Of a DNA stretch of 64,000 bases, positions 10,612-11,243 are shown piece by piece. The stretch lies in IMG/VR virus record IMGVR_UViG_3300021375_000006, one strand, 5' to 3'. Under the pieces are notes generated by a model. That model was given only the letters and a program-made list of their open reading frames with translations, had not been told where the DNA came from and ran no database searches. The DNA is from a virus. Its lineage: Duplodnaviria; Caudoviricetes. Each line of letters opens with the position of its first letter. Within the stretch, counting starts at the first letter, position 1. The position numbers and the translations under genes are program-made.

Positions 10612-10690
10612 GGTAGTCAAGGAGAGACTTGAACTCTCATGTAACCAATTACTCTTTCAACAAGGTATAAGCTTGAGGAGATACTTGACT
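10612..10690 (-). ncRNA. non-canonical D-armless tRNA-like RNA with a TAT (Ile) anticodon loop
   Basis: 7-bp acceptor AGTCAAG/CTTGACT, T arm GAGAG-TTCAAGT-CTCTC, anticodon arm CAAG-CTTATAC-CTTG. No D arm, but an extra GTAA-TTGG-TTAC hairpin before the T arm. Confidence 0.7.
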
Positions 10691-10695
10691 ATGTG

Positions 10696-10769
10696 CGGTC
10701 TGGACGGGATTCGAACCCGCGACCCCATGCGTGACAGGCATGTATTCTAACCAGCTGAACTACCAGACC
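10696..10769 (-). tRNA. tRNA-Asp(GTC)
   Basis: GGTCTGG...CATGC-CTGTCAC-GCATG...GGTTCGAATCC...CCAGACCG. Confidence 0.95.
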
Positions 10770-10784
10770 ATAATAATATGTTTA

Positions 10785-10859
10785 CTCCACTTGGACTCTC
10801 CTTTCGGTTGTAGGCGTGAGATTTGACGCCTCGTTGTTCGGCTTTCGCCTATCCAAGAG
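10785..10859 (-). ncRNA. compact four-way-junction structured RNA candidate
   Basis: Closing stem CTTGGA/TCCAAG around hairpins GGC-GAAA-GCC, AGGCGT-N8-ACGCCT and CC-GAAA-GG. Confidence 0.55.
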
Positions 10860-10860
10860 C

Positions 10861-10976
10861 GGGGGAGTAGGGGATTCGAACCCCTACTTCTGCCTAACCA
10901 ACTTAATCACATCGCGTAACTAGTATGATGCTTTCAGTCTTAAGGTTGGAGCGTCGTACCGTTTGACTAACTCCCC
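10861..10976 (-). ncRNA. tRNA-like RNA (116 nt) with an enlarged anticodon domain / possible 35-nt intron
   Basis: Acceptor GGGGAGT/ACTCCCC, D arm GTC-AAACGGTAC-GAC, T arm AGGGG-TTCGAAT-CCCCT. Stem CCAAC/GTTGG encloses 42 nt instead of 7. Confidence 0.7.
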
Positions 10977-10984
10977 ATATTTAG

Positions 10985-11058
10985 TGAACCAGACAGGATT
11001 CGAACCTGTGACCGTCTGCTTAGAAGGCAGATGCTCTATCCAGCTGAGCTACTGGTCC
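10985..11058 (-). tRNA. tRNA-Arg(TCT)
   Basis: GGACCAG...TCTGC-CTTCTAA-GCAGA...GGTTCGAATCC...CTGGTTCA. Confidence 0.95.
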
Positions 11059-11063
11059 ATAAG

Positions 11064-11154
11064 AAAGAGAGGCTTCGGGTCTTTCGGGGTTACTACTATA
11101 TAGAAGCTAACCCTTGCTTTTATCCATATAAGTGTAGCTTCACTACCTCTCTTT
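11064..11154 (-). ncRNA. structured intergenic RNA candidate between tRNA-Leu and tRNA-Arg
   Basis: 9-bp closing stem AAAGAGAGG/CCTCTCTTT and a 7-bp inner stem GAAGCTA/TAGCTTC. Confidence 0.45.
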
Positions 11155-11157
11155 TAG

Positions 11158-11243
11158 TACCGCTGGGCGGGCTCGAACCGCCACGGACATTACTGTCCAA
11201 GGGATTTTAAGTCCCTCGTGTCTACCAATTCCACCACAGCGGC
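11158..11243 (-). tRNA. tRNA-Leu(TAA)
   Basis: GCCGCTG...AGGGA-CTTAAAA-TCCCT, long variable arm GGACAG-TAA-TGTCC, T arm, A discriminator. Confidence 0.95.

Follow-up and report, generated by a model that had tools for sequence, protein, structure and literature searches.

A conserved two-module RNA gene with a tRNA-like half in the tRNA cluster of an uncultured tailed phage

In the TMERs of murine gammaherpesvirus-68 and in MALAT1/mascRNA, a tRNA-like module is fused to another RNA and separated from it by RNase Z or RNase P; the tRNA-like part receives CCA and is not used in translation. YrlA, a bacterial Y-RNA-like molecule found in some phages too, mimics the T arm, D arm and acceptor of a tRNA. 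The tRNA clusters of phages are themselves usually annotated as helpers of codon usage, and two stable RNAs of phage T4, RNA C and RNA D (species 1 and 2), are still without an assigned function after about 50 years (PMC3014915; PMC9697503). Other phage-associated RNAs, GOLLD and ROOL, are homo-oligomeric (PMC12286853). Here, we describe a non-coding RNA gene in the tRNA cluster of a 64,000-nucleotide stretch of DNA (the window) from the virus record IMGVR_UViG_3300021375_000006 (Duplodnaviria; Caudoviricetes). All coordinates are window positions, and the gene and the tRNA cluster lie on the minus strand.

The original prediction, drawn from the letters alone, was of a 116-nt tRNA-shaped element at 10861-10976, in which the anticodon loop is replaced by 42 structured nucleotides, and it left open whether this is a tRNA with a protein-spliced intron or an RNA that is not spliced. 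The element is only the front half of a gene, and a conserved four-way-junction domain directly follows it. Our analyses demonstrate a conserved, single-copy structured RNA gene of two modules, with covarying helices, a maintained palindrome and a fixed junction. We are confident that it encodes a structured bipartite non-coding RNA and not an intron-containing tRNA. With less assurance, we favor the fuller reading in which the 116-nt element forms the 5' module of a non-coding RNA gene about 196 nt long that is conserved among large, uncultured tailed phages, and for which we propose processing, dimerization and a decoy role.

Conservation and structure of the two modules

Relatives were found by pattern scans of viral (IMG/VR) and metagenome contigs. 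A DNA pattern from the 5' half recovered six near-identical copies in IMG/VR, a neighboring dehydrogenase gene led to more distant loci, looser patterns on both kinds of contigs gave 25 distinct variants, and scanning with the 3' domain added far more distant members. The totals are 40 distinct homologues of the tRNA-like module (module 1) and 28 distinct variants of the four-way-junction module (module 2). Pattern matches inside coding regions were discarded as false positives (L030, L044 and L048, and further L079, L081, L083-L089, L091, L092, L094-L096, L098-L100 and L103). Both modules always occur together at a fixed spacing, and as a search from either one always recovered the other, we regard them as one evolutionary unit. 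Module 2, about 80 nt long and near-invariant, starts exactly one nucleotide past the discriminator in every homologue. A covariance model built on it (R1) matches the window once (97.4 bits, E = 2e-24), and the records of five relatives (167-212 kb) likewise contain exactly one copy each. In GenBank phages the region of the element matches ordinary tRNAs only and the 202-nt unit has no match, and the core of module 2 has no exact match in 185,579 prokaryote genomes. Besides, no Rfam family matches module 2 at E <= 10, and no description of the bipartite RNA was found in Rfam or in the literature searched, by topic and by literal sequence. G001, the nearest record, is a fragment of 33 kb that lacks the locus. 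The best reading is that of a new family of two-module tRNA-mimic RNAs, found only in uncultured large phages and undescribed in the databases and papers searched.

Module 1 retains only the upper half of a tRNA, and a long irregular arm replaces the anticodon stem-loop (Table 1). The acceptor stem, D arm and T arm of the original prediction are all present in the sequence: a 7-bp acceptor stem, a D arm with G18G19 and a T arm with a UUCRANY loop, together with U8, A9 and a 4-nt variable loop that provides an A15:U48 pair. The Rfam tRNA model matches exactly these 116 nt, with a score well above its gathering score of 29 (E = 2e-5 over the window), and leaves 58 nt as an insertion within the anticodon arm; this match is more than chance, and the same model matches module 1 of distant members with 42-56 bits. 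In an alignment of 23 relatives (A1), the mean identity of the tRNA body is 0.97. The only irregular D-arm position, 13:22, is an A.C mismatch in the window and A-U in three aligned relatives (L012, L021, L032). Module 1 lacks a 7-nt anticodon loop, with U33 and a purine at 37, on a 5-bp stem; as encoded, its loop is 42 nt long. The third acceptor pair is G3-C70, and we propose no synthetase because there is no G3.U70 and no G-1, and because the discriminator varies. Among 31 phage tRNAs no convincing best match for a parent isoacceptor was found, and the closest ones did not include the type II tRNA-Leu genes.

The minimum free energy (MFE) fold of the single 116-nt sequence is neither tRNA-like nor significant (z = -1.34), for which reason comparative analysis was used. 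Pairs were counted on A1 against an explicit structure, since RNAalifold mis-pairs the acceptor stem with the D region. Of 1131 alignment cells, 95.5% are paired in this structure, versus about 42% in slid controls; 11 pairs change on both sides, the compensatory changes are spread over six helices, and the structure, P2 included, also emerges when the window sequence is folded by constrained MFE. The covariation called for by the original prediction supports a long arm in place of the anticodon arm, built from P2, a UAAG junction, P3, an internal loop and the P4 hairpin. Infernal pairs positions 27-28 with 42-43, in agreement with P2. P3 occurs as ACU/AGU, GCC/GGC, ACC/GGU, AUU/AAU and ACA/UGU. 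The internal loop reads GAA opposite AGUA in most other lineages (AGUA(A) in L021, L037, L056, L065, L069, L070 and L073), which would fit the consensus of the loop E or bulged-G motif. In three loci (L012:8554-8695, L056:5593-5731 and L021:3266-3403) an extra hairpin of 9-10 bp stands between P2 and P3, and its strands vary by lineage yet remain complementary.

These observations bear on the idea that the locus is either a decayed tRNA pseudogene that acquired an insertion or an element acting at the DNA level (an attachment site or protein-binding palindrome, for example), with no function as RNA. The non-significant single-sequence fold would suit such an element, and so would palindromes that resemble restriction sites in DNA. 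Decay or a DNA-level role does not account for the compensatory changes in six helices, for the intact tertiary nucleotides of the tRNA body, for a single copy on the same strand as the tRNA cluster, or for conservation in phages with completely different flanking genes, and we give the idea next to no credence.

Module 2 folds by MFE into the same four-way junction that the comparison supports (z = -2.55). In an alignment of 26 variants (A2), 98.9% of cells are paired versus 28-43% in slid controls, and three compensatory pairs were located in P1' and P2'. P4' covaries as CC-GAAA-GG, GUC-GAAA-GAC and ACC-GAAA-GGU. The junction strands AUAGG, CCGAACAACGAG, CCUACAA and GAGUC..AAGUGG are invariant across lineages that share no flanking genes, and the mean identity of the module is 0.93 (A1). 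Pairing of the P3' loop (CUC) with the GAG that precedes P1', as a pseudoknot, was considered and dropped because the L082 and L090 types do not preserve it. So high a conservation of unpaired nucleotides raises the question of whether module 2 is an unrecognized self-cleaving ribozyme whose cleavage site lies at its 5' edge, between discriminator and G+1, so that the 3' end of module 1 would arise without RNase Z. HDV-like and hatchet ribozymes do cleave at their own 5' edge, and in the bipartite unit any of the four nucleotides (C, A, G or U) can precede the junction, in contrast to the invariant G+1 and junction nucleotides of module 2. The fold, on the other hand, is a plain four-way junction with no supportable nested pseudoknot, and no Rfam ribozyme family (hammerhead, HDV-like, hatchet, pistol, twister and twister-sister included) gave a covariance-model match at E <= 10 over 10765-10985. 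We therefore rate self-cleavage as improbable.

Table 1 The bipartite unit, its structural parts and the neighboring tRNA genes (window coordinates; cells and compensatory pairs of module 1 refer to alignment A1).
Feature	Positions	Strand	Remarks
Complete conserved unit	10781..10976	minus	About 196 nt: tRNA-like module, one discriminator nucleotide, four-way-junction module
Module 1, tRNA-like RNA (element of the original prediction)	10861..10976	minus	116 nt; Rfam tRNA 41.6 bits
Acceptor stem GGGGAGU/ACUCCCC, 7 bp	10970..10976 with 10862-10868	minus	100% of cells paired, 23 relatives
D arm GUCA, loop AACGGUA (A14, A15, G18, G19, A21), CGAC	10953..10967	minus	Three invariant pairs
P2, 5' strand CUCCAACC, 3' strand GGUUAGGCAG (bulged A and C)	10944..10951 with 10890-10899	minus	8 bp, starts at 27:43; 92.6% paired, 2 compensatory pairs
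P3, (G)ACU / AGU(U)	10936..10939 with 10900-10903	minus	All 3 core pairs compensatory
Internal loop GAAA facing GAUUA	10932..10935 facing 10904-10908	minus	GAAA invariant in A1
P4 hairpin GCAUC, 13-nt loop, GAUGU	10909..10931	minus	88.7% paired, 2 compensatory pairs (CAUC/GAUG vs UAUC/GAUA)
Self-complementary hexamer ACUAGU in apical loop	10919..10924	minus	Proposed kissing-loop dimerization site
Variable loop AAGU and T arm AGGGG-UUCGAAU-CCCCU	10869..10889	minus	100% of cells paired, 1 compensatory pair (A-U vs G-C)
Discriminator C	10861	minus	C, A, G or U across relatives
Module 2, four-way-junction RNA	10781..10860	minus	About 80 nt
P1' (CUC + UUGGA with UCCAA + GAG, GUG bulge)	10852-10859 with 10785-10795	minus	
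P2' hairpin (GG..CC)	10840-10849	minus	GNRA loop in window
P3' hairpin AGGCGU/ACGCCU, loop CAAAUCUC	10812-10831	minus	
P4' hairpin CC-GAAA-GG	10800-10807	minus	GAAA loop
tRNA-Leu(UAA)	11157-11243	minus	Ordinary tRNA, default ARAGORN
tRNA-Arg(UCU)	10984..11058	minus	7 nt upstream of unit; usual upstream neighbor in the window's lineage
tRNA-Asp(GUC)	10695..10769	minus	Next gene downstream of unit; downstream neighbor differs among relatives

The insertion in the anticodon arm

The splicing model started from a stem CCAAC/GUUGG that encloses 42 nt and from the internal pairs GCAUC/GAUGU and UUAA/UUAA, all of which can be read from the sequence, as can the C at the discriminator. In the relatives, the register made of CCAAC/GUUGG and UUAA/UUAA is kept less well than that of P2 and P3, with 78-80% versus about 93% of cells paired. 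A 3-nt linker between the D and anticodon arms, which had been taken as an anomaly, exists under the former stem; Infernal pairs C27-G43 and U28-A42, which leaves a 1-nt linker, turns the apparent 12-nt variable region into a variable loop AAGU and thus explains both oddities. Removal of 35 nt at the 37/38 position does yield a 7-nt loop with a Leu(UAA) anticodon, but the deletion is not unique. Both ends of the 42-nt loop share sequence, so that it can be slid to UUU (Lys), UAU (Ile) or UAA (Leu), and the tRNA identity it suggests is arbitrary.

If the element were an intron-containing tRNA (Leu-UAA, Ile-UAU or Lys-UUU), a protein endonuclease would cut out the 35-nt insert near 37/38 and the halves would be ligated into a decoding tRNA. 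Several findings speak for it: (i) in the window the deletion gives a 7-nt loop with U33 and R37, (ii) ARAGORN, which makes no call for the element by default, accepts a tRNA-Ile(UAU) with a 35-nt intron at 36/37 when introns are allowed, (iii) UAAG on the 5' side of the loop is retained in 18 of 23 close relatives, and (iv) one relative (G006) encodes a T4 Rnl1-type RNA ligase, whose match to the general RNA_ligase family is sub-threshold. The relatives tell otherwise. When the same splice is applied to the 23 sequences of A1, the restored loop is the predicted CUUAAGA in 10/23, and in 10/23 it is UAUAAGG and in 1/23 UGUAAGG, with U33 gone; position 33 is A or G in 11 of the 23. The anticodon would read GAA in one relative (CUGAAGA), and AAA in those with CUAAAGA (two relatives), UUAAAUG (one) or UUAAAAG (one). 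Mean identity in A1 is 0.83 in the "intron" columns versus 0.76 in the putative anticodon-loop columns, the reverse of a decoding tRNA, whose loop would stay while its intron drifts. The insert also has covarying helices and a kept palindrome, and it grows from 35 to more than 70 nt by whole added hairpins, which measure 25 nt or more in some members. Distant members have no alignable anticodon loop, and neither anticodon nor discriminator is conserved among orthologues: across the family, ARAGORN with introns allowed returns 11 identities (Ile, Val, Phe, Arg, Trp, Pro, Thr, Ser, Lys, Stop and Leu), and the discriminator is C, A, G or U.

The junction is not a clean bulge-helix-bulge, as the original prediction had already remarked; the sequence has no 3-nt bulge, 4-bp helix and 3-nt bulge in succession. 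Nor can a group I intron be accommodated, since 35 nt are present where about 200 nt or more are needed, and no Rfam intron matches. A search of relatives for RtcB, RNA ligase and splicing endonuclease genes, which had been suggested as a check, gave a divided answer. The Rnl1-type ligase of G006 was found, and RtcB (PF01139) and tRNA splicing endonuclease (PF01974) were absent from the G002-G004 records (169-212 kb), which are only 56-76% complete. Furthermore, an ordinary tRNA-Leu(UAA) is already present in the window, and relatives have ordinary Leu(UAA) and Lys(UUU) genes as well as one for Ile(UAU) or Ile(GAU). An intron would finally leave the obligatory module 2 unexplained. Taken together, an unconserved loop around a conserved and structured insert, and no splicing enzymes in those relatives, tell against a protein-spliced tRNA, which we consider very improbable; of the two options first proposed for the element, it is the non-spliced tRNA-shaped RNA that agrees with a structured insert, covarying helices and the absence of a kept anticodon loop. 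On the best explanation, the RNA does not serve as a decoding tRNA and is not an intron-bearing precursor of one either.

This has a practical side for annotation. TRNA finders that tolerate introns give members of the family arbitrary identities, one suppressor included: ARAGORN with introns labels the member at L076:5291-5412 "tRNA-Stop (tta)". Automatic pipelines could annotate genes of this kind as suppressor tRNAs and wrongly infer recoding of stop codons.

Palindromic loop, processing and possible roles

In every lineage the homologous apical loop of P4 carries a self-complementary stretch of at least 6 nt (6-8-mers), the sequence of which is lineage-specific: ACUAGU in the window and, elsewhere, GCUAGC or UGCUAGCA; UGAUAUCA; UGAUCA, CUGAUCAG or CCUGAUCAGG; UCGCGA; and GUAAUUAC, with GAUAUC among the hexamers. 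Where loops can be aligned in pairs (L069 with L065, L070 with L073), the substitutions are double and symmetric, as in ACUAGU versus GCUAGC and UGCUAGCA versus UGAUAUCA. Self-complementarity of the loop is thus maintained by compensatory change through six different palindromes. A random loop of the same size contains a 6-nt palindrome with a probability of 0.05-0.16, and chance is not a plausible source of six independent palindromes at one structural position. Most simply, the palindrome would serve a loop-loop (kissing) homodimer, which is predicted here from sequence.

On these grounds, the following course can be proposed for the RNA. The unit would be transcribed together with the tRNA cluster. 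RNase P would make its 5' end, as suggested by the intact top half of the tRNA and by the nucleotide before G1, which is a pyrimidine in an A/U-rich leader, the same as in the neighboring tRNAs. An RNase Z-type cut after the discriminator could then part the modules, and a CCA-adding enzyme, such as the relatives themselves encode, could cap module 1; CCA is not encoded by the tRNA genes of the phage, the element included. Because covariation preserves the palindrome, two copies may pair loop to loop. It is tempting to speculate that the product would be a stable tRNA mimic, either a decoy or a scaffold, that engages a factor recognizing the acceptor/T-arm half and stays out of translation, with module 2 as a co-delivered effector or partner domain. 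As a complete chain of processing, dimer and decoy, we regard this course as doubtful.

Enzymes that could act on the 3' end are encoded in several relatives. CCA-adding enzymes of a 382-388-aa form occur in G002 (G002:C1:185553-185930, 2.2 kb from the unit) and G006 (G006:C1:138137-138514), and a 241-aa CCA-adding protein with a PolyA_pol head is encoded immediately downstream of the unit in L072 and L075 (L075:7617-8342) and one gene further in L074. The 64-kb window itself has no open reading frame (ORF) with a GGxVRD motif. In G006, which carries the window-type RNA, the Rnl1-type ligase (G006:C1:132558-133076, 74 bits) is about 5 kb from the gene for the CCA-adding enzyme. This neighborhood suggests a tRNA-repair gene set, and the co-occurrence of the unit with CCA-adding enzymes and, in one phage, with an RNA ligase points to an arms race of tRNA attack and repair.

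The fixed junction can be explained in another way, in which module 2 is the functional part and module 1 is only a processing handle that recruits RNase P and RNase Z to define the 5' end of module 2, an arrangement known from the TMERs and from MALAT1/mascRNA. The greater sequence invariance of module 2 across lineages would follow from this, as would a junction fixed at discriminator +1 and the finding of the unit alone, outside tRNA clusters, just upstream of varied ORFs. A mere handle has no need of a conserved extended arm, a GAAA/AGUA internal loop or a maintained palindrome, for which an ordinary tRNA would suffice, and as a full account we find it unlikely. It is compatible with the processing, dimer and decoy reading, and the two are not exclusive.

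Several points weigh against the proposed course, every step of which beyond a conserved structured RNA is inferred. No conserved protein partner is found in the neighborhoods of the unit, which differ between lineages. A module 2 that begins at the discriminator might block RNase Z instead of being released by it. The palindromes are palindromic in DNA as well, and could hence conceivably be sites for a dimeric DNA-binding protein. As for the arm, P3 has an A.A mismatch in five aligned relatives, and within the subgroup of the window CCAAC/GUUGG pairs perfectly, with covariation at one pair (34-102, AU in 10 and GC in 8); this pairing, together with UUAA/UUAA, may be an alternative conformer.

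The boldest version, which we think unlikely to hold in full, is an undescribed class of RNA in which an anticodon-less, self-dimerizing tRNA mimic is fused to an ultra-conserved four-way junction and acts as a decoy or sponge, or as a CCA-bearing acceptor. If it were true, large aquatic phages would use it against host factors that attack or recognize the acceptor/T-arm half, as in tRNA-targeting immunity, or alternatively as an acceptor that bears CCA and stays out of the ribosome. In that case the 3' end of the mimic could also be defined by the four-way junction, acting as a new ribozyme or protein-binding effector.

Genomic setting and comparison with known RNAs

The window belongs to a myovirus-type tailed phage, with genes for the tail sheath, large terminase, portal, protease and major head proteins, and has a G+C content of 35%. 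Default ARAGORN finds five ordinary tRNAs in it (Pro, Asp, Arg, Leu and Ser), all on the minus strand. Around the unit the order is tRNA-Leu(UAA), a 98-nt spacer, tRNA-Arg(UCU), the element, a 91-nt "spacer" and tRNA-Asp, and a scan for promoters and terminators around the cluster did no better than shuffled sequence. The 98-nt insert between tRNA-Leu and tRNA-Arg (11059-11156, minus strand) is closed by a helix of 9-10 bp, AAAGAGAGG/CCUCUCUUU (z = -2.07); similar sequence lies at the same place in L010 and L026, and L016-type relatives have a 10-nt spacer only. Just 3' of tRNA-Asp, at 10612-10691 on the minus strand, there is a second conserved tRNA-like RNA, which is called neither by ARAGORN (-mt included) nor by Rfam. 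It has an 8-bp acceptor-like helix, UAGUCAAG/CUUGACUA, and a 3' ACC, and lacks a D arm. The T arm, GAGAG-UUCAAGU-CUCUC, shows compensatory changes among relatives (GUGAG/CUCAC, GUGGG/CCCAC), and two further hairpins are present, CAAG-CUUAUAC-CUUG, whose loop has 7 nt, and GUAA-UUGG-UUAC. The counterpart of this RNA in L001, L036 and L037 sits about 17 nt after the bipartite unit. In two other contigs an ordinary tRNA-Lys(UUU) (L013:7448-7521 and L022:7357-7430) fills the slot directly after tRNA-Arg(UCU), in place of the bipartite unit, which was not seen in the part of these contigs examined.

Among described RNAs, tRNAs with introns (archaeal and eukaryal ones at 37/38, and the cyanobacterial group I intron in tRNA-Leu UAA) share with the element an insertion in the anticodon loop and, in the window, a rightly placed UAA triplet. 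They differ from it in that the element has no bulge-helix-bulge, its insert has 35 nt and is kept where the loop is not, and splicing enzymes were not found in the relatives G002-G004. Transfer-messenger RNA (tmRNA) resembles it more in architecture, as the upper half of a tRNA (acceptor and T arm) with a long helix to other domains in place of the anticodon arm. The bipartite unit, in contrast, has no G3.U70, no tag reading frame and no pseudoknots, and its ends are not joined across the other domain; neither ARAGORN nor Rfam calls a tmRNA on the element. One phage contig that holds a divergent copy of the bipartite unit also carries, at L080:6437-6500, a 64-nt "mini-tmRNA" (Rfam tmRNA, 59.5 bits across model positions 1-374), which consists of the tRNA-like domain only, with G3.U70 and the GGUUCGACG motif and no tag-coding middle.

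The likeness to the TMERs and MALAT1/mascRNA is one of logic, a tRNA-like module joined to a second RNA, with processing that in the bipartite unit would be analogous; those RNAs are eukaryotic and their tRNA-like parts have an anticodon arm of ordinary size. In YrlA the RNA ends are located in the Ro-binding stem, which stands where a tRNA has its anticodon stem, whereas the ends of the bipartite unit form the acceptor stem. With the HIV-1 dimerization site DIS and with GOLLD and ROOL, the unit shares a hairpin loop in which a self-complementary 6-mer stands between unpaired purines; the 6-mer varies among lineages yet is always palindromic. It differs from these kissing-loop RNAs in being small (about 200 nt) and tRNA-shaped, with a dimer that is so far a prediction.

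The nearest precedent by genome position is T4, where two stable RNAs that are not tRNAs, RNA D and then RNA C, stand in a row inside the tRNA cluster, directly after tRNA-Arg(UCU), and RNA C ends in an acceptor-like helix and a GGGUUCGAAUCCC T arm. Sequence comparison indicates no homology past the T loop: R1 scores at most 8.6 bits (E = 1.2) in the T4 tRNA region, at a site in neither rnaC nor rnaD, and blastn against these two genes finds the 13-nt T loop only. Besides, the tRNA-like part is 3' in the second T4 RNA and is the first module in the bipartite unit, and T4 has no recognizable equivalent of the four-way junction. T4 rnaC (L063:4909-5047), with its 8-bp acceptor-like helix and canonical T arm, has an interior 8-nt palindrome, UUUUAAAA, which may parallel the palindromic loop of the bipartite unit or be a chance occurrence in A/U-rich sequence. 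Compared with the T4 RNAs, the family described here offers a much larger comparative handle, with dozens of diverged copies, a defined architecture of two modules, what is probably a dimer interface, and a junction whose place at the discriminator is fixed.

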